DNA of 63,824 nucleotides, counting the filler, from Vezdaea acicularis (taxonomy: Eukaryota): the NCBI GenBank assembly GCA_026025075.1. It is 6 parts of 6 records of this genome, joined end to end, with 100 filler letters (N's around TTAATTAATTAA, not from the genome) between each part and the next. Parts side by side here need not be neighbours in the genome. Positions count along the whole stretch, not along the records: positions 34,451 to 45,136 come from JAPEUI010000256.1; 5 more parts are not named here. One strand, 5' to 3'. A model generated the notes under the pieces. It was not told the origin of the DNA. It did not search any database and saw only the letters and a program-made list of their open reading frames with translations. Numbering within the stretch: the stretch's first letter is position 1; every line of letters begins with the position of its first letter. A program made the position numbers and the translations under genes. Of the stretch, positions 12,037 through 55,855 are shown piece after piece.

Positions 12037-12136
12037 NNNNNNNNNNNNNNNNNNNNNNNNNNNNNNNNNNNNNNNNNNNNTTAATTAATTAANNNNNNNN
12101 NNNNNNNNNNNNNNNNNNNNNNNNNNNNNNNNNNNN
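12037..12136. other. Artificial contig linker (44N-TTAATTAATTAA-44N)
   Basis: Identical six-frame-stop spacer occurs five times in the window. Confidence 0.99.
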
Positions 12137-23213: not shown

Positions 23214-23313
23214 NNNNNNNNNNNNNNNNNNNNNNNNNNNNNNNNNNNNNNNNNNNNTTAATTAATTAANNNNNNNNNNNNNNNNNNNNNNNNNNNNNNN
23301 NNNNNNNNNNNNN
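23214..23313. other. Artificial contig linker
   Basis: 44N-TTAATTAATTAA-44N. Confidence 0.99.
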
Positions 23314-32102: not shown

Positions 32103-33788
32103 TGAGAGGGGGGTGGGGTGAGGCGCGTTGGGGGTGGTAAGCTGTTGGTAGAATGGAGGATTGTTAGGTGTAGGTTGTGAGATCGCTGGGCCATGGCTGT
32201 TTCATGCACTGTGTATCCGCTATAACAGACGGACGGACAGACAGGACTTCAGGGCAAAGAGCGAGAGAGCTCCGTCTTTCACTTGTACTTTATCTGTCTT
32301 CCCCCTCCCTCCCTCCACCTCGGTCCGGGAAGCTTATGTTTGTCCTGCCCACGAGGTTCGGGTTGGACCTATCAGTGAGAAGGTGGGTTGGGGCTATGTA
32401 CGCCTCCTCTGCCTCCGCTGTTGTTGTTGGTTCTTGTCTGGGAGGAGGAGGGGTTAGGTGTAGGTGTAGCTCTAGATTCACCTGTATGGATAATCGATCT
32501 AATCCACCTCGTTTGTATCATATTATTCCACTTTCGATGTGCGTCTCAAGGGGGTGGGAGTGAGTGAGTGAGTGAGTGAGATGTGAGGATATGAGAATGT
32601 AAGGATATGAGAGGATGTAGGTGTCTCTCTTGGATATGATATGTATCGTCGTCGGTCGTCGTCGTCGTCGTCGTCGTCGTCGTTACTGTTGACGATATGT
32701 AACGAGGTATCAAGTAAGTAACCTAATGGCCGCGAAGCGAAGGGAGGAAGGGAGCGTAACAAGCAAGCAAGCAAGGGTGGGTAATGAGTAACGAGTAATC
32801 CCTGATTCCATCTCCTTTTCTCGCTTTCTCCCTTTCTCCCTTTCTTCCTTTCTCCCATCCCTTCCCATTCTCTCATTTCCTTTCTCCCTTATCCCACCAA
32901 GGGACCTGAGAACCCTCCTCTCTTCTCCCCAGCCTTCTCTCCCACCACCTCATCCTCTCCCACCACCACCACCACCTCCTGCTGCTGCTGCTACTCCAAT
33001 TCTCGAAGCCCCCCCCCCGGCTTTTTCCTCCTGGGGGAAATTGGGAATTGGGAATCCGGGGGATGGATTACACGGATGGACTGTTGTTGTGGGTGGTTGA
33101 GACTTTTCTCTGGGATGGGGAGGGAGAGGGGAGGGTGAGTCTGGGGGTGGTACTGGCTGTTTGATTCATACTTCCATCCTTCGTTGACGGATGGATGGAT
33201 GGGTGGGGGTTCAGCAGATCCTCCCCCCTCCCCCCTTTTTTTCCTGAGGCGGTAGGAGAAGAGGGCTCACGCTGTACACCTCTCACACCCTCAAGATCTG
33301 CACTGTAGATAGAAGTAGACAACTCATTTCCGATAGCTTGTCTTGCCTAGTTAACTCCCTTATTCTCTGGACAACGCGTATGCTCGTCATATCTATCCCC
33401 CTAATTCTACCCCCACCCACCTCCCTACCCCCTAGCATCGGCGCTACAGCTCTCTGCTCCTCCTGTACACCGAGAGGTTACCCCGTAGATACCGCGAAGA
33501 CGGTCTCCTGGAGGAAGAACATCTCTTGATCCGCTCACTCAGAGGAAAATACTGGCCAAGAAGCCCGTCCACAGCTGTCTTCTACAGGACTGCTTAAGCT
33601 ATTGTAGGAGCTGTGGAGTGATGCCGTGGACGTGCTCGTCACAGCTCCATAAGGACCGACGTTGCCATGGAAGGCGCTTTCCCGGTCAGGCGGGGGGGGA
33701 GGGGGGCAAGGCCGGTAGCTGCCCGGCCTCGCCAAACGGAGAGGGCAGGGTGAGCCCTAATCAGACTCCCGCACGCACACACGCACAC

Positions 33789-33789
<1 letters not shown>

Positions 33790-33850
<61 letters not shown>
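33790..33850. repeat. Homopolymer C30-A-C30
   Basis: Counted directly from the sequence. Confidence 0.9.
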
Positions 33851-33853
<3 letters not shown>

Positions 33854-34350
33854 CACAACAGCGTGTGAGCAAGGCCAAATCAGTGAGAAGCTCCCACCAC
33901 TTTCCGTATAGACTGAGTTCGAGATAAAAAGCAAGCAGAGTTCTGTGTGCTTGAGAAATTAAAAGTATAATCAAAAAGGAAAGGGTCATGGAAAAGCTTA
34001 GTAGGTCACACTACTAACTGAATTAAAGGAGACAAGACGGTGCCAATCACGCGGTAACCACGTTCGATAGCGGCATCGACGAAAAAGAGTAAAGAGAAGG
34101 AGAATACTGAAAGTTTTAGTATTCGGTGGCATCATCAGAGTAAGTCTAATGAGCGTACAGTTCTTGTCACCGTGCCTGGCTCGGTGAGCTTCACTGCGCA
34201 GAACACTGGTTCCGTGATAAACTAAGTCTGCACTCCACTTATGCTCGTTTTCTCTGGAGAGGGCAGCGATATGCATCCCTCACCGAATAGAATACGTGAA
34301 AAGATATACTAACCGGCGTATACGAAACACAGAAATCAACTAGTCAAGAG

Positions 34351-34450
34351 NNNNNNNNNNNNNNNNNNNNNNNNNNNNNNNNNNNNNNNNNNNNTTAATT
34401 AATTAANNNNNNNNNNNNNNNNNNNNNNNNNNNNNNNNNNNNNNNNNNNN
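34351..34450. other. Artificial contig linker
   Basis: 44N-TTAATTAATTAA-44N. Confidence 0.99.
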
Positions 34451-35131
34451 CTCTCTTGCGCGCGCGCTGCATCCGCAACGCCCAATACGCCGCCGCGGAG
34501 GTGAAGCGAGGTGAAGTGAGGTGAAGTGAAGCACGCCGGTGCTCGTCCGTCCATCCTCGCTCTGCCCTCTGCCCTCTGCCCTCTGCTTTCTGCCCTCTTA
34601 CTCCTCACACATCTCCCCCTCTCTCTTCCACCCCCCCGGTCCGCCCGGCGTTTCCAGTCCTCCTCCCCCCCCGGCTCTGACACCCGCTTAGCTCGACTGC
34701 CCACTGGCGCCCTAAGAGAGCGAGAGACGGCTGCCCACCGCCCGCCGCCCGCCCATGCTGCTCGTATAACTTATATACCTCCCGCGCGCCCGCCACCGAG
34801 AACCGCCATCGTGTCTCCCCCCCCTCACCGTGACCGTTGCGCTGGGTTTCCCGTGAATTCGAACAGAAGAGTGCGACTTGCTCGTGTCTTTGCTGGCCCC
34901 GGCCGTTCCTGCCGCAAAAGTCGAGAAGGCCAAGTTCGTATCCGCATCACTCGCGCGACCCCTCCACCCTCCTCCAACTCCTCGAACCGCCAGACGAACA
35001 ACTTCTTCTTTCTTTCTCGTCAACACTCGACCTTCCTTCCAACCTTTCTCACCACACACCGCGACAACCACCGAACATCGACGACAACAAGCTTTGCACG
35101 GGATCAATCGTGCTCGCGACGGTCAGGAAAA

Positions 35132-37030
35132 CTGGCTTCGGACCCGAACAACGTCGCCGTCGTCGTCGTCGAGACCTCGTCCGGCCCGGGCATCTTGCCG
35201 ACTCCACGGCCTAGCCCCTCTGAATCACCGCAACAACCCCCATATATAGCCACGATAGAGGGCCCCGCAGGCAGGCCGTCCGGTGTCCGTCTGGCCGTGA
35301 CCGGTCTGAGTGACGTGAGCCGGGACCGGCCGAGCTCGACCTCCTCCGGCGACACGTCCGCCACCCCGCGCGACGCTTCCTCCGTCTCGCCCTCCGTCAC
35401 CGAGATCTCCTCCGCCGGCACCCGTCGATCCTATCAATCCATCGTCCTCACCCCGACCCCCGACCTGCCGCCGCAGCATTTCGCAAAGGGCGAGTCGATG
35501 GCCGAGAACCGCGAGGCGTCCGAAGCCAGGCCGACCGAATCCCCGGCCTCACGCTTCACCGCCGTCAACGGGCGAGAAGCGCAGACCTCCGCGCCAGCGT
35601 CGAACGGCATCTCCTCCTCCACGTCCCGCCGCACGTCGGGAGAGCAGGCGCGAGCGCGGAGCCGGCCGCAGAGCCCTCCAGCGCGCGCGTTGGATCCACC
35701 GTCGGCGACGCAAGACTGGGCTCTGCGCTCATCCAACAACAGTGACCCTCGCGGCAGCGTCTCGGGGTTGATCAACCACCCGCAGCCCAGCAGCCCCGCC
35801 AAGAGGAAATGGTCCGGCTCTCACGAGCAAGCCGGCGCCCAACCCTTTCACACCCATCAGTTACCGAGGAGTCCGAGAGGAAGCCAGTATCCCAGCGTGG
35901 ATTCGGCGATGCACGGCACCGACGACCCCAAGACGACAGGCCATACATCGTCCGAGGCCGGTCCGAAGCGTGGGGAGCATCAAGGACCGCGCCACGCGGA
36001 CGACTTGCGGCCGTCGACGTCGGCAGCAGCGACAGAGATGGACTACTACGGAAGACCCCCATATCACTCGCGGCCTTCTACTCCAGGAGGCGTCGCTCAT
36101 TCCGATGCCCAGCTTGCGGAAGCGCTCCAACGCGAATCGCAGAGCCTCGATGCGACGCAGGGAAAGCGGGACGAGAGCTTCGACGTCGAGGACGACGACG
36201 ATTCGCGCAGTTCGGCGCAGCGGGCGACGGATTACGCCAGCGAGAGGACGCCGGGCGGCGGCGCGCAGGTCGACCATAAGCGCCGGAAACGCGTCTTTAG
36301 CAACCGGACGAAGACGGGTTGTCTGACTTGCCGGCGGCGGAAGAAGAAGTGCGACGAGACGAAGCCGGAGTGTGCGTATATATCTTTTCTTGAGTGCCCG
36401 CCAATTTTTGTTTTTTTCGGTCTTTCTAACTTGTGTGTGTGTGTGTGTTTTCAGGCAACAACTGCATTCGAGGGGGTTTCGTCTGCGAGGGCTACAGCTC
36501 GCGGGTGGAGTGGCAGAAATCGGGCAGCAGCAAGCCGCCGGTGCCCCTCCAGGCCAAGGACGGCGAGGTCCAGGGAAGCCCGGCGTCGATATCGCCCAGC
36601 CAGCACGCCCAACACCTGTCGAACGGTACGCCTGCGGGCGCCTCGAAACGGGATGCCCAAGAATCGCCCGTGTTCCGTGGTCTCCAACCGGCCGGCAGCG
36701 GACACGGCGCCAGTGGACACGGCGCCAGCGGTCGACCCATCGTCGTCGACGAAGAACAACAACCACAACGAGCCGCGGCCATCGTCAGCCCGGACCGCAA
36801 ACACCAACCCGCGGCGTGGGGCAAGGCGAGCTGGCCCAGCTCCGCCAAATCGCCCTTTCCGCACGAGCAAGCGCTGCGAGCAGACTACCCGCGCGCGCCG
36901 CCGCTGCACAACATCCGCACCGACCAAGAAGGTGGCGCCGTCGCCGCCGTCGCCAGCACGCCTCAATCCGCCGTCTCGCACCGCTCCCTCCTCCACCCCT
37001 CCCACAGCGGCAGCAGTCCCCAGACGCCTC

Positions 37031-37061
<31 letters not shown>

Positions 37062-37916
37062 GCATCAAGCCCAGGCTCAGATCCAAGCGCAAGCCCAACT
37101 CGCCCTCCAACAACACCAGGCCGCCTCCTCCTCCCTCCGCGCCCGCCCCCGCACCGAAAAGGAGAAGATGCTCGAGGGCCAACTCTACTTCGCCGCCGAC
37201 GCCGTCCTCGTCGCCGAGCGCAAACGCTGCAAGGCCGCCTGCTGGCGCTTCAACAACTGCGACAACCCCAGCATGGACGTCAGCGACGAAGAGCGCGCCC
37301 GCCTCTTCCGCAAGATCCTGCAGCCCGACGATGTCGTCTCCAGTAGTAGTGGTAACAGCGGAGGCGGTAGCGGCGGGGGTAATACGCTTCGCCCGGCCTC
37401 CCCCTCCGGCCAGGTCGGCGACCACGTCGTCGTCGAGGCCCCCCTCAGCTGCGACTACGGCTACAACATCAACATCGGCGACGACGTCCTGATCAAAGAC
37501 CACTGCACCATCATCGACACCTGCACCGTCAGCATCGGCAAGCGCTGCATCCTCGGGCCCAACGTCAGTCTGTACACGGCCACGCTGCCAATCGACCCGC
37601 GTCGCCGGGCTGGTAGCCAGGGACCGAGCATGGGCCGCGGCATCACCATCGAGGATGATTGCTGGATCGGTGGGGGGGTTACCATTTTGTAAGTTTCTAC
37701 CTCCCCTCACACCTTTTGTCGTAATACCACCCCATAGAAGACTAATTTCTTGTTTTTTGCGTGGATCATAGACCAGGCCTGACCATCGGCCGCAGCTCCA
37801 CCGTCGGCGCCGGCTCGGTCGTTACGCGCGACGTCCCTCGCTTTACTGTTGTTGGCGGCAATCCGGCGCGCGTCATTAGGGGCATCTATCGGGATGCGGC
37901 TGATCAGGGGCCGTAG
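35132..37916 (+). CDS. Zn(II)2Cys6 transcription factor fused to a C-terminal maltose/galactoside O-acetyltransferase-like (LbH) domain; start is candidate CTG 35132 or first ATG 35498
   Basis: Exons ..36371, 36455-37688, 37772-37916. Zinc cluster [33 protein letters not shown]; poly[43 protein letters not shown]. The start codon is less certain than the product. Confidence 0.9.
37030..37062 (+). repeat. (CAA)10CAG coding microsatellite (polyQ11)
   Basis: Read directly, in exon 2 of the Zn2Cys6 gene. Confidence 0.9.
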
Positions 37917-38217
37917 CTTGGAGGATAAGTCATACCTCACCTCATTTGTATGTGATTGCGTGGGAGGACTGAGTCGAATGGACGGGTTCATCCCTTTTTC
38001 TCTGCATTTCTGTTTCTTGTTTATGGGTGGTAATGGCTTGACTCGGCTAGGGCTCGGATTGGGCTTGATATACCATCCTGCATGATGCACGGTGCATGGA
38101 ACATGGAAGTACGCACGCATGGAACTATCCAAACACGAAAGCTAGGCGGGTTTTGTACATGCCATTATGTCTCATCATCCTCATCCTCCTTTCCCCCCCC
38201 GGTCTGGCCGGCTCAAG

Positions 38218-39135
38218 GGGAGTGGAGTGGAGTGGAGTGGAGTTGGAAAGGGGCTGGGAGGAGTGGAATGGAGTGGAGTCCTCGTGGGTTAATGAAATGG
38301 AGTATACGATGAGAGATGAAGACTGGAGGACGAATGAAAGGGGAAGCTGGATGGAGGGGGTGGGTGGGGATAGTATATCCCATCACAGAGCATAGCATCA
38401 CAGAGCATATCATAGCATAGCATAGCGTAGCATAGCATAGCACATAGCCTTCACGCAGACCTCTGTCTGGCTGGCTGCTATAACAGCGGATAGTCAGTAA
38501 GAACCAGAACCAGAACAAGAAATAGAAATAGAAATAGAAATTAAATCACCCGTCACGAATATCATGAGCTCGTGCACCGCTGTGTAAGGCTGCGCGGAGG
38601 AAGACAAAAGCGGGGGAGGGGGGGGGGGGGGGGGGGGGGGGGGGCGGTTCGGTTTATCTGGGAGGTTTGAGTTCTCTCTCTCTCTTTCTTTGTCTGTCGT
38701 CTATTTATCTATTCGTTCATCCATCCATTCACATCGTCTCCACCCCTCTCCTCCTATCCTATCCTATCCTATCCTATCCTATCCTATCCTATCCTATCCT
38801 ATCCTATCCTATCCAGTCATATCTCACAACCATCTCTCTTCCCTCCCCCCTTCTCAACAAATCCACTTTCCCCTCTATCCCCCCGGGGCTTTAACATTTC
38901 TTCCTTCCAGTCCCCACCCATCTCCTCTCTTCCTCTCTTCCTCTCTTTCTTTCTCCGTCCTTACATCTTAGTCGGCATGTTTCTGATACCATACCTCATA
39001 CCATACCATACCTCTCTCTCTCTATACATTCTTCACGTTCCCTACTTTCACGCGCGCTGTCTCTCTCTTTACGCGCCTTAGTTTGGTCCGGTCCGGTCTG
39101 GTCTGGTCTGGTTTAGTTTCGTCCAGTCCAGTCTG
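38218..39135. repeat. Dense simple-repeat cluster between convergent genes: (GAGTG)n, (CATAG)n, (GAAATA/GAACCA)-like, G27, (CCTAT)12, (CATAC)n, (GGTCT/GTCCA)n
   Basis: For example G-run 38618-38644 and (CCTAT)12 at 38753-38812. Confidence 0.9.
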
Positions 39136-39521
39136 TTTTTCTGAACTCTTATCCCCTCTGACTCTCAGTCCATTCCATACCGCTCAGTTTTTCCGGTTCG
39201 TGCGGCGATAGGAGCTGGGCGCTCGTTTCTTCCCTTTCCCGGAATCCCGGAATACAGGAATACAGGAGGTTGCCTGTTGGTGGCTAATTCTTTGGGTTTA
39301 CTTTGGCGCTTGGGATTTGAATTGGTTTGGTTGCTTGTTCGATTTCTGGGTTTTCTTCGTCTTCTCTTTTGTCTTGTTCTTATACTCCTTCTTCTTGTTC
39401 TCGTTCTTCTGGTGAGGAAGGAGATCGCGAGAGTTGATGGGGAATTGTAGTATTCTATTCCACCACCTCCTCTCTCCGCTCCCACCAACCCCTCAATTCC
39501 CTCTCCCTTTCAAAAAACCAC

Positions 39522-40986
39522 TCACCCCTCCCCCTCATCATCACCCCACCCCTCCGTCTCCTCCAACCCCCTCAACACGCCCTCCACCTCCCGCGGATGA
39601 TCCAGACCCCAAACCCCTCCCCCCCTAAGCCCATCCGCGCCCCTCATCCCGACCTCCTTCCCCACCAGATTCCTGCCCACCTTCCCCGGTCCGAGGCCGA
39701 TCCAGCGCCTCACGCCAAACTCCTGGTCCAAGTAGCGGATAGAGTCCCACCAGCGAACGGTCTCGACCGCTTGCCGCGCGAGCAGGTCTTTCAGCTCGGA
39801 TGCACTGCTGAAGGGGCGCGCGGAGACGTTGCTGATTACTGGGAGGTGCCCGGGGAAAGTTATGATATCCCTGCGCTTCGTCCCAGTACTCACCCCACCC
39901 CCACCACCACCGTCGTCCTCGTCAACGACAACGCCATCAGCAAGCCACCCCCGCATCATCTCCCCCGCCGGCCTCATCAACGGACTATGAAACGGCGCAT
40001 CCGCAGACAGTCTCACGGCCCTTGGATCATGCCCCCCAAAACTTCTCAAATGCTCCAGTAGCTCTTTAACCCGCTTAACACTCCCACTAAGCACGATTTG
40101 ATTCTTCGCATTAACATTCGCCAGACTGACATGCGCGCTCAAGCCCGTCACGGCCTGCTCGGCATCGTCGTCGCGGCCGGGCGTGAGAGTGAGGAAGGCT
40201 TCGATCGCGGCGATGAGGCTGGAGAGATGCGCGGGCTCGACCATCAGCGCGAACATCCCGTATTCGTCCGTCCCAGCGGCCTTGTCGTGCGCCGTGCGGG
40301 AGCAGTCCGCCATCGCCAGCGCACGCTTCCGGACTAACAACAGCGAGTCCGGGTAACTCATATTCCCCGCGGCAACCAGCGCCGCGAACTCACCTAGCGA
40401 GTGGCCGAGCGTGACGTCCACGCGCTCACTTGTGCGGAAGCCGAATTCTTGTTCTAGGATGCGTAGGATGAGGATGGAGATGGCCATGATGGCTGGTTGT
40501 GCGTTGCCGGTTGCGCTGAGGGCGCTGTTGGGGCCGGAGGCGATGAGGTCTGAGAGCGGGTAGGAGAGGAGGGAATCGGTTTCTTGGAGGAAGGGGAGGG
40601 TGGTTCGTGGGAAGGCGTTTAGCCAGGGGGCGGACATGCCGACGCGTTGGACGCCTTGGCCTAGAGAAGTAGGTTAGCTTGGGGGAGTTCGGAAGTATTG
40701 AGGGGGGGACAGGGGGGGGGGCGCGTTGTAAGGGAAAGGAGAACAAAAGAGAGAGATCAATACCAGGAAAGAACAACGCCGTCTTCGCCTTCCTTTTCGC
40801 CGCCTTTGTAGAAAACCTTCTCCCATGCCCTCCACTCTTCACCAAACACCATCCCCCCGTCCTCTCCCCAGCCCGCCATGGGAGAGTGCTAGAGCTCGCC
40901 TTTATCCCCCCGCTCCACACCCGCTTCATCCCGTGTGTCCTGTGAGCGCGCGCACGTATACGTCCGTTTCTTGCTCTATCGAGCAT
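39522..40986 (-). CDS. MCT1: Malonyl-CoA:ACP transacylase (FabD/Mct1, probably mitochondrial)
   Basis: Intron 40763-40661 builds FFPGQG; AQPAI, catalytic GHSLGE, APFHS, VRW. Arg-rich N-terminus. An alternative ATG lies at 40929. Confidence 0.9.
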
Positions 40987-41503
40987 TCAGCAGCCTCCTG
41001 AGTAAATCTTTGAGGAGCGACTATTCATATTTTTGCGCGGCGTCGTCGTCTGAAGCTGTGGCTGTCTGTTAGTGGGGAGGTTCACGCGGAAGCCTCCGTC
41101 TGGAACCGAGGACAGCTTAGCTTGATTAAGCGCGGACGGGTTGTCGTGGGGTAACTGACGGCGCGCGGAGGGGGCGCTTGGCGAGACGGGTCGCTTTTCA
41201 CATGCGTTTGACGATCGAGTGACTACGTGAGGTCGAGGGTAACATGGTGTTTGGTTTGGTTGCGTTTGCTTCTCACGATGCGGTGAATTTATAATGCTAG
41301 CAACAGATATATATATATATATATAGAAGGGAAAACGCGGTATGAAGACACTGAATGAAGCCATCGCTGTATGCTTTTTTGCTTTTTTGCTGCAGCCGTG
41401 AGCAACGGAACTGTTAGGAAAGCTTCCCCTTTGAGAAAAATCGGTCGCTGGACCTTCGATGGTCCCCTGCTCTCTTCTCCAGGCCTTTTACCTCAGAATA
41501 AAA

Positions 41504-43235
<1,732 letters not shown>

Positions 43236-44293
43236 CTCTCAAGATCTTAATCAATTGATTGCGTGAAGACAGACAAATTGATGTTCGAAATCAAGTGGAA
43301 TCGTCTTGGAGCAGTTGTTGCACAGAGGTAGTAAACTCAGGTTACACTTTATCTTAGATGCACGATTTTCCGAGGAAGCTATGACGAGGGATGAAATCGC
43401 GTCGAGGTCAAAGTCGAGCTTTCACGCATGCGTCGAACAATCTTGGCAGAAAGCACTTTGCAGTGATTGTTTCTAGTTACCACTAAAGCATATTATATCA
43501 ATTCGAGAATCTCAAGTTCATGGTTAACTACAGGGTTCTAGCCAGCTACGGCTTTGACAGCGTCGTCACGTTCGAAGATCCCTTTTCCACGGGCCTGAAA
43601 AACAAAAGCTCGCTTCAAAGATTTTCCCAGTTTCCCCTTCAAGCTAGTGGCCGCTGTCGTCATCGTACCAGACGCCCATAGGCTGTGACGCACTAGCAGT
43701 CAGTTGGTCAACTTCAAGGCGAACTCCTTCATGTGAAGCTATGTGGAAAGTTACCATTGCTCAATGGATTGTTTAATTATTATGTTGAGGCCTCGTGTCC
43801 CGTGCGCGCCTGCTCTTGCCCGAATCGACAGAGCGCTGGCGACGATGGTTGACAAACATGAGAACGGGATGATGCTAGTATAACGGGATATAAGGGAAGG
43901 AAAAAGGTGCTCTCGGAGAGGGGGTAAATGGAAGTCCACGTATGAGTGACTGGGAATCAGATAGAGTCTCGACATCCATCAAGGATCGACGACATCGTCC
44001 CGTTGCTTTCGGTTAAGATGTGATCCGCGGTAGGAACCATAGACATTGTAGAGGTTTGATTGACCGACCAACACCACCACCTTCTTAATGCAACACTGAA
44101 ACAGAGAGAATTGTATCAACGAAGTATAAACTGTTCGAAACCCAGCCCGCAATTTATGACATGCATCTTATGACATGAAGCGGGCCAAACCCAAATACGG
44201 AGCCAGGTCTCATAGCAATCATTGCTCGAGACTTGCCTCGTAAGGGCGAGTCGTATCTCATTACTCGTGGTCCTCATCAAAGACCGAGGAGAA

Positions 44294-45136
44294 CTAAGAA
44301 GCCTTGTGCCCAGCACCACTTGCTGGACCTTCCGATGGACCACCCTTCAACACTTCTCGCGCTTCAGTCTTGTCCGAGGCCGCGGAAGTTGGCGACGCGA
44401 TCTTTTCAGGGGTTGCGGAAGTGTTTGCTGCTACGTCAGGGGTCATTTGCCTTTCAGAGTTCGATGTCGGTGCTGGCGTCCCTTCCCGTGCACTCCTAGC
44501 CTGTAGTTCGCTCTTCTCCTTGTCTGTATCTTTCGGCACCTGAGCTTCAAGATCTTTGTCCTCGTCTTCGGAATTGAACAAATCTGTATCAGCAGAGTCT
44601 GTAAGAACCTCTGTTCCGTCTCCCAGGAGGATAATCCGGCCTGGTCGTCCGCCCATATCGCGTGTACGCTCGTCTAAATCGTAGTTGTCATCGTCGTCAT
44701 CGTATGTGTGATGTTCGCCTGGATTTCTAAACTCCGCTGCTTGAGATATCAGTCTTGGTGATATCTTGCGGAGAGACGGAGGTTCTTCACTGACCGCATT
44801 CCGGTGGGGCACACGGACCGTCACCGTCTGCGACCCTCTTCCCGACTTCTTCGTACCACTGCTCCTTTGTTCTGTTGCCGAGTAGAGCGATTATTCCGAT
44901 GGTCATGTTATCACAACCTACTCCACCAGTCTCGCTATTTGAGGCTAGACAGTTGTTCATCATATTCTCACAAATCCGATATAGCTCCTGTTTGGCGGCG
45001 ATTCCCCGTCGTACAAACTCAACTACAGCCTGGGATGATTGACAATCCCAAATACCTATTTTGGCCTGTGAGCATGCGAGAAACCACTGACGAAGTTGTA
45101 TTTTGCAGCATGCTTACCATCACAAGCAACAACAAT
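44294..45136 (-). CDS. PTC2: Protein phosphatase 2C (Ptc2/Ptc3-like), 3' portion only
   Basis: IVVACDG/IWDC across intron 45117-45056, GVGCDNMT, intron 44794-44737, fungal tail GRIILLGDGTEVLTD. The 5' end is lost at the contig break. Confidence 0.9.
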
Positions 45137-45236
45137 NNNNNNNNNNNNNNNNNNNNNNNNNNNNNNNNNNNNNNNNNNNNTTAATTAATTAANNNNNNNN
45201 NNNNNNNNNNNNNNNNNNNNNNNNNNNNNNNNNNNN
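45137..45236. other. Artificial contig linker
   Basis: 44N-TTAATTAATTAA-44N. Confidence 0.99.
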
Positions 45237-55755: not shown

Positions 55756-55855
55756 NNNNNNNNNNNNNNNNNNNNNNNNNNNNNNNNNNNNNNNNNNNNT
55801 TAATTAATTAANNNNNNNNNNNNNNNNNNNNNNNNNNNNNNNNNNNNNNNNNNNN
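55756..55855. other. Artificial contig linker
   Basis: 44N-TTAATTAATTAA-44N. Confidence 0.99.

Follow-up and report, generated by a model that had tools for sequence, protein, structure and literature searches.

The gene and its conserved start codon

We analysed a 63,824-nt stretch of the Vezdaea acicularis assembly GCA_026025075.1 (hereafter the window), focusing on a gene on the + strand of the contig at window positions 34451-45136 (10,686 nt) and on the interval 35132-35497, which directly precedes the annotated start codon of this gene, ATG 35498. From about 35174 to that ATG the interval has the composition of coding sequence (CDS) in the gene's frame, and we propose that it may be translated, from CUG 35132 or from another near-cognate codon, as an N-terminal extension of the gene's product. 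All gene features and codons described below are on the + strand.

The gene possesses three exons and two introns and encodes a product of 750 aa. Exon 1 (35498-36371) encodes the first half of a Zn2Cys6 cluster (from ~36314) as well as a disordered region, with the motif SRFTAVNG (35549-35572) near the N-terminus; intron 1 (36372-36454, gtgcgt...ttttcag, 83 nt) divides the cluster, and its splicing restores the sequence of the deposited protein P0001. The remainder of the cluster, a Mac_assoc region, a Mac cap and hexapeptide repeats are encoded in exon 2 (36455-37688), which is followed by intron 2 (37689-37771, gtaagt...catag, 83 nt) and by exon 3 (37772-37916), with the stop TAG at 37914-37916. 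Pfam matches cover the central Zn2Cys6 cluster that intron 1 interrupts (Zn_clus, E = 3e-05) as well as a cap and a left-handed beta-helix (LbH) acetyltransferase (Mac, 1.3e-14; Mac_assoc, 1.4e-10; Hexapep, 3.1e-05). This order of domains (central Zn2Cys6, Mac_assoc, LbH acetyltransferase) is that given in the published description of Botrytis cinerea Bcin04g03490 and its orthologs, ff-7/NCU04001 in Neurospora crassa and FGSG_10069 in Fusarium graminearum (available text of PMC8079791). Because the architecture agrees and the homologs come from Sclerotinia and other Helotiales, we assign the gene, on its predicted domains, to the ff-7/Bcin04g03490-type developmental regulators with Zn2Cys6, Mac_assoc and maltose/galactoside-acetyltransferase domains.

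To place the start codon within this family, we compared the gene with proteins and with metagenome loci. A region-limited protein search scored 8000 candidates, of which 241 reached E <= 0.001 and 120 were listed; P0001 (750 aa) is 100% identical to the product and starts at ATG 35498, and among the matches listed the next best are ~41-44% identical. An alignment of 19 sequences showed an almost wholly invariant Zn cluster block and an invariant RFTAVNG, shortly before which most of the annotated methionine starts lie, with P0010, P0019 and P0020 annotated from ATGs farther upstream. The metagenome scan returned 80 loci, of which 42 were distinct and possessed an FTAVN motif, an ATG before it and a Zn cluster after it; the others were 14 duplicates of these 42 and 24 loci that were too short, cut or without that architecture. 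An ATG precedes the F of the motif by 11-31 codons in 42/42 loci, within a selection that itself demanded an ATG 8-40 codons before the motif, and the window's ATG 35498 stands 18 codons before RFTAVNG, compared with 15-27 in 20 distinct loci. Because an ATG is found at a like distance from the motif in all 42 loci, ATG 35498 (35498-35500, gagtcgATGgcc) is, as judged from these alignments, the family-conserved start.

An open, ATG-free upstream region with a well-placed CTG

The sequence-only reading of this DNA had claimed that no ATG separates a TATA-like element from the annotated start, that the reading frame is open throughout, and that an in-frame CTG in a favourable context precedes an ATG in a poor one, and each of these claims held on recomputation. 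ATGs occur on the + strand within 34300-35900 only at 34755, 35498 and 35809, and the resulting gap of 743 nt ranks second among the 907 gaps between the 908 + strand ATGs of the window; for the 740 nt between the two ATGs, dinucleotide shuffles average 3.8 ATGs, and 1% of them are ATG-free. The ATG at 34755 is the sole one on the contig 5' of the gene, is out of frame, and opens a mini open reading frame (ORF) of 4 codons (34755-34769, ATG CTG CTC GTA TAA). The TATA-like TATATA is present at 34772-34777, a candidate element by its sequence.

The nearest in-frame stop upstream of the gene is TGA 34517-34519, and from there to ATG 35498 the gene's frame runs without a stop (0 stops in the 326 codons of 34520-35497, vs 10 and 6 in the other two frames; in shuffles a mean of 5.3 in-frame stops, and none in 0.4%). 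CTG 35132 (35132-35134) is in frame, 122 codons before ATG 35498, and its context, ggaaaaCTGgct, with A at -3, G at +4 and C at +5, is the best among the in-frame near-cognate codons; the translation that starts there agrees with the one given earlier. The context of ATG 35498 is weak, with T at -3.

Coding-like composition of the interval

We assessed the interval 35132-35497 for signatures of coding sequence. It comprises 122 codons rich in Ser, Pro and Thr, with no ATG in any frame and no in-frame stop. The earlier observation that its codons end in C or G as those of the CDS do was borne out: GC content at codon positions 1/2/3 is 0.62/0.64/0.80 over the 122 codons vs 0.62/0.61/0.77 in exon 1; the 102 codons ahead of the CTG give 0.52/0.62/0.56.

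To formally evaluate this, we took the 750 codons of the gene itself to train a codon-frame model and scored sequence with it, using dinucleotide shuffles (n=2000) as the null. The 122 codons of 35132-35497 scored +29.0 nats (null -6.0 +/- 9.4; 0/2000 shuffles as high), and the first 122 annotated codons scored +22.2 nats (0/2000). Across the interval the gene's frame beats the other two by +29.0 and +41.4 nats, with frame advantages averaging 43 and 30 in true CDS pieces of equal length. The two blocks farther upstream are not coding-like: 34520-34825 scored -11.7 nats (1418/2000 shuffles as high) and 34826-35131 scored -3.6 nats (980/2000). A period-3 repeat of GTC/CGT (35152-35171, 6.7 copies) carries much of the score of the first 38 codons, and no other period-3 repeat was found in the interval; with the repeat excluded, 35174-35497 still scored +21.7 nats (0/2000). 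Between 35212 and 35316 there are 5 and 3 stops in the other two frames and none in the gene's frame.

The onset of this signal adjoins the CTG. In a change-point scan the cumulative log-odds reach their minimum at 35126, such that the coding-like run begins at 35129. Third codon positions are G or C (GC3) in 8/20 of the codons before the CTG vs 19/20 of those after it (Fisher p = 4e-4), a contrast that is the largest of all in-frame positions from 34700 to 35440 and is tied over 35132-35138. The coding-like signal is strongest from 35285. By composition, coding character is therefore solid from ~35174 to the ATG and suggestive from the CTG to ~35174.

Near-identical contigs from other DNA metagenomes provided a further comparison, for which contigs of four runs, near-identical (strain contigs at 99% in X1-X3) or ~93% identical, were aligned over 34451-38000; none of the runs listed as containing this sequence is recorded as RNA. 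They confirm the assembly across 34832-36679, and in the part 35194-36679 one run (X1) differs from the window by 13 substitutions and 2 gap letters. The ~93%-identical contig (X4 record 25, 98 substitutions) has an unbroken alignment that starts at 35104, spans the extension and reaches into exon 1, and upstream a second X4 contig (record 24) aligns only over 34615-34972, where 358 nt contain 36 gap letters; an alignment that is unbroken through the extension and gappy upstream of it is a weak hint in the extension's favour. The X2 strain contigs end at 35207 and restart at 35248, by ATA 35246, and the X1 contigs overlap over 35194-35207; the positions between, 35208-35247, may be a polymorphic spot inside the candidate extension.

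An ACG-started extension in other members of the family

The sequence-only reading had called for an alignment of ortholog 5' regions in search of a conserved in-frame CTG. Comparison of the metagenome loci yielded an extension in other lineages, started by ACG; the distant loci do not align with the extension in the window. In 14/42 distinct loci an in-frame peptide, TATxKSP...LVxLAREIL, is conserved upstream of the family ATG. Comparison of its 9-codon core among the 14 loci gives 0.26/0.22/0.60 differences per site at codon positions 1/2/3, and synonymous codon differences outnumber non-synonymous ones (385 vs 223); in the nine codons ahead of the ACG the differences per site are 0.74/0.72/0.67. 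Conservation starts at a Thr codon, which is ACG in 10/11 loci anchored there (L006, L012, L015, L021, L039, L042, L052, L059, L065 and L069; context C-A-N-C-ACG-G-C). Of the 11 loci, 10 have C at -4, 9 have A and 2 have G at -3, and all 11 have G at +4 followed by C; CUG 35132 resembles them in its A at -3, its G at +4 and its C at +5. The annotated Sclerotinia protein P0010 has its Met1 in the ACG column of the alignment.

Because 14/42 loci possess the peptide, because its conservation sets in at the ACG, and because the methionine of P0010 falls on that ACG, we conclude from comparative sequence that the ff-7 family uses a predicted non-AUG (ACG) N-terminal extension in lineages other than that of the window. 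The family extensions are 38-77 codons long. By best named match the loci that bear them are Helotiales-like, near Hyaloscypha and Hyphodiscus, and four (L012, L015, L059, L065) represent more remote lineages; one locus (L053) is cut by a contig end. The protein P0013, named as from Lachnellula suecica, starts at an ATG and its N-terminus matches L052, a locus with the motif and the ACG upstream. The in-frame stop closest upstream is a TAG in both L021 and L042, and this TAG could be the end of a 5' untranslated region (UTR) intron as reported in Botrytis; with this possibility, the stop in these two loci is no proof against translation from farther upstream. No paper linking the family with non-AUG initiation was found in the literature searched, where the ACG extension also seems undescribed; judged by title and abstract, the papers there that name NCU04001, the family's Neurospora ortholog, do not deal with translation initiation. 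The sequence-only reading suggested that a Neurospora gene of similar architecture is listed as a non-AUG candidate; the available text of PMC5487733 and PMC7049704 holds no mention of it.

A proposed mechanism for a long form, and what weighs against it

Given these observations, we hypothesize that translation in the gene's frame includes the interval upstream of ATG 35498, giving the product an N-terminal extension. As the leader would carry no AUG, a scanning ribosome would need a near-cognate start, and CUG 35132 would be the best candidate, adding 122 residues. Ribosomes that pass the CUG would scan the AUG-free interval and start at AUG 35498, weak at -3 as it is, such that one mRNA would give rise to long and short protein forms by leaky scanning. 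We infer the transcription and translation of the interval, its start codon and the coexistence of two forms, and a long AUG-free leader with partial near-cognate initiation and leaky scanning seems to us the most economical reading.

Several observations weigh against such an extension or against the CUG as its start. Within the interval, the codons from the CTG to 35245, repeat removed, number 30 and score only +1.9 nats (217/2000 shuffles as high), GC3 falls to 0.53 across 35195-35284, and a TATA-like catatatag lies at ~35241, a point of note since transcription starting downstream of 35132 would exclude the CTG. The strain contig shared by X1 and X2 carries 11 substitutions and 7 gap letters over 34832-35207 (371 letters on 376 positions). 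Openness alone is weak evidence, since 18% of the shuffles of 35132-35497 lack an in-frame stop and the gene's frame also runs open across intron 1 and 346 out-of-frame exon 2 codons, to 37492.

The database searches point the same way. No homolog of the 122 aa was found by phmmer at E <= 0.001 among 1.84 billion representative proteins, and the non-self matches listed in the protein search cover <= 72% of the query, approximately the share that lies after the ATG. A hidden Markov model (HMM) of the family-extension core gave no positive-scoring match in the window's 326 upstream codons, and Smith-Waterman comparison with the 28-aa core gave a maximum reached by 419/500 shuffles and a sum reached by 75/500. 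The ortholog loci with DNA are 31-37% identical to the window over exon 1. On these comparisons no homology is detectable between the window's extension and the family ACG extension. A Smith-Waterman sum against the full-length extensions did exceed all 500 shuffles, and we set it aside as a likely effect of clustered Ser, Thr and Pro. MAFFT places the window's IATIEGPAG on the family's TATxKSPxG, a placement that is not significant, and 5/11 local alignments give the same register, again without statistical support; the register extends over 17 residues of the window, set against TATxKSPxG...LVxLA of the family. The codons concerned are ATA GCC ACG (35246-35254), which this register aligns to the family's ACG-GCN start, with homology unsupported and with catatatag overlapping them; we treat the register of ATA 35246 and ACG 35252 on the family start as a lead only. 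The window and the family extension have in common the gene family, the downstream ATG, the frame and the lack of an in-frame ATG; unlike the family extension, the window's lacks the motif by HMM and by Smith-Waterman, has CTG in place of ACG and is longer (122 vs 38-77 codons).

The family itself also supplies exceptions. Neither motif nor extension is present in 27/42 loci, where the frame is closed by a stop 1-81 codons ahead of the ATG; one locus without the motif (L073) possesses an open stretch of 144 codons that looks non-coding and is open by chance. Among the loci related to the motif, L024 has ACA in place of ACG and a CTG three codons upstream, L007 lacks an ACG and has, 64 codons ahead of the family ATG, another ATG in frame, L037 (3949-4067) has a 2-nt alignment gap that puts the motif out of frame, and L026 (1343-1473) has an in-frame TAG just before the motif's LV, with the motif beyond still conserved; the interruptions in L037 and L026 may be sequencing errors or real losses, both being possible. 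ATG-free leaders of 458-1167 nt occur in eight loci (L065, L073, L037, L069, L021, L004, L012, L013) whose GC content is near 50%, and the family's leaders seem to be long and kept free of upstream AUGs. Such leaders also precede the ATG in loci that have no extension (L004, 508 nt; L013, 458 nt; L073, 1167 nt), so that the ATG desert is not specific to extensions and is better evidence for a long scanned leader than for an extension.

Together, these results bear differently on the two parts of the proposal. For the extension itself, the CDS-like codon structure, the change point at the CTG, the best available context and the family precedent speak in its favour and the lack of homology to the family extension does not, and we regard it as evenly balanced whether a non-AUG-started N-terminal extension exists in this gene. 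The choice of CUG as its start agrees with the change point beside it, and the first 38 codons are not significantly coding-like once the repeat is removed; we regard CTG 35132 as a possible start of the extension, short of probable.

Alternative explanations

The explanation that fares best beside the proposed extension is that translation begins at AUG 35498 only, with a long AUG-free 5' leader upstream whose codon-like pattern arose by chance in C-rich sequence or is the relic of an extension; we hold this to be a real possibility, if hardly a probable one. The ATG at the family-conserved position, the deposited model P0001 that starts there, the 27 of 42 loci without an extension, the leaders of 458-1167 nt without ATG in extension-free loci, the failure of the 122 aa to find a homolog in 1.84 billion representative proteins, the commonness of open frames in the window's sequence, and the part of the signal that the (GTC)n repeat supplies are all in line with it. 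Chance is harder to reconcile with the in-frame score of 35174-35497, which no shuffle reached and which equals that of true CDS, with the absence of any period-3 repeat found beyond 35152-35171, with 8 stops in the other frames vs none in frame, and with the 204 upstream codons, which are C-rich too but carry no coding-like signal; a relic would still imply an extension that was recently translated.

A shorter extension from a later near-cognate start is unlikely in our estimation, and it is counted within the chances given above to a non-AUG-started extension. Its candidates are ATA 35246, ACG 35252, CTG 35291, GTG 35297, CTG 35306 and GTG 35315. The signal becomes robust only at ~35174 and is at its strongest from 35285 onward, both MAFFT and 5/11 of the local alignments put the region of ATA 35246 on the family start, and an extension of 84 codons from that ATA would come close to the family's 38-77. 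These codons stand in poorer contexts, however, the ATA having T at -3 and the ACG, GTG 35297, CTG 35306 and GTG 35315 all having A at +4; the homology to the family extension is not significant; the change point and the GC3 contrast fall at CTG 35132; and a scanning ribosome would reach the well-placed CUG first if the transcript includes it.

Finally, the interval could be coding and start from an ATG in a spliced upstream exon, joined at an acceptor CAG ending at 35126, with that exon off the contig or lost to an assembly fault. The contig only begins at 34451 and therefore offers just 681 nt of genuine upstream sequence ahead of CTG 35132, the acceptor-like CAG ends 5 nt before the CTG, an exon boundary at 35126 would account just as well for the abrupt change at 35129, and the Botrytis ortholog possesses a 5' UTR intron and alternative 5' splice forms (available text of PMC8079791). 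We nevertheless consider this explanation improbable, given that the sole upstream ATG on the contig (34755) meets a stop after 4 codons, that an exon off the contig would need an intron of at least 676 nt vs 83 nt for both known introns, that no branch-point-like CTRAY or pyrimidine tract was seen by eye before 35126, and that independent metagenome contigs span 34832-35207 and 35194-36679 without rearrangement. Two specific joins from ATG 34755 to the acceptor at 35126 were rejected, the in-frame splice for want of a frame-keeping exon end followed by GT (by eye) and the 9-nt first exon on account of the TAG that it meets at 35247.

Contig layout and further sequence features

The window is composed of separate contigs of ~10.5-12 kb each, with five spacers of N44-TTAATTAATTAA-N44 between them (12037-12136, 23214-23313, 34351-34450, 45137-45236 and 55756-55855); as these spacers part separate contigs, no feature is to be read across the joints. 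A run of ~70 C with one interrupting A (33781-33851), close to the end of the contig that precedes the gene's, has the look of a homopolymer tract or assembly artefact. At its own start, the gene's contig carries short tandem repeats within a CT-rich stretch at 34498-34598 (GAGGTGAAGT x3.2 and CTCTGCC x5.6), and an Rfam scan of 34451-35700 returned nothing at E <= 1. Within the gene, a (TG)n tract lies right before the acceptor of intron 1 (36421-36457), and the Mac_assoc region of exon 2 contains a poly-Gln run (~37020-37075); the alignment of the metagenome contigs passed over these two places as repeats.

Known parallels and significance for the family

The closest known mechanism is the near-cognate-started extension of cpc-1, of which the window's gene is a candidate further case. 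According to the available text of Ivanov et al. (2017, mBio, PMC5487733), extensions of N. crassa cpc-1 and its Pezizomycotina homologs, started at conserved CUG, AUU and ACG codons, have been demonstrated by in vitro translation, reporters and ribosome profiling, and are conserved in ~100 species. Like cpc-1 as described there, the gene studied here encodes a transcription regulator and has a long leader, an in-frame, stop-free upstream ORF and near-cognate codons with A at -3 and G at +4, and long and short forms would arise from one mRNA, as demonstrated for cpc-1 and as we infer for the window. Unlike that of cpc-1, the window's putative extension is predicted from composition, its protein family is unrelated, and its leader lacks a long AUG-started upstream ORF, with only the 4-codon mini-ORF on the contig. 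A second parallel is provided by tRNA synthetases of Cryptococcus with dual starts at ACG or AUU (available text of PMC7049704).

Within the family, Bcin04g03490 is annotated in 710-aa and 754-aa forms, a 44-aa N-terminal difference, and among the annotated forms of the Botrytis gene the N-termini differ by 44 and 84 residues; this variation at the N-terminus resembles what we propose here, whereas the Botrytis forms start at ATGs and arise by alternative 5' splicing (available text of PMC8079791).

Extending these parallels, the ff-7/Bcin04g03490 regulators of Pezizomycotina could be two-isoform genes, with a long form from a conserved near-cognate start and a short form from the AUG that all members share, a generalisation that we offer as speculation and consider rather unlikely. 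Its long form would start at ACG in most Helotiales-like lineages, at ATG in Sclerotiniaceae and perhaps at CUG here, and would carry the short conserved amphipathic motif LVxLAREIL; the ratio of isoforms would be set by start-codon stringency and act as a developmental switch, and the window's gene would be a diverged and lengthened instance.

Members of the family control sexual development in Neurospora and Fusarium, and in Botrytis sporulation, sclerotia, light responses and pathogenicity, with the Botrytis and Fusarium members also regulating virulence (available text of PMC8079791). If the proposed extensions are real, current gene models such as P0013 would be too short and a conserved N-terminal motif would have been overlooked; annotation from the first ATG in a metagenome-assembled fungal genome may truncate proteins in this way, and the activity of these genes could be tuned by the choice of start codon.

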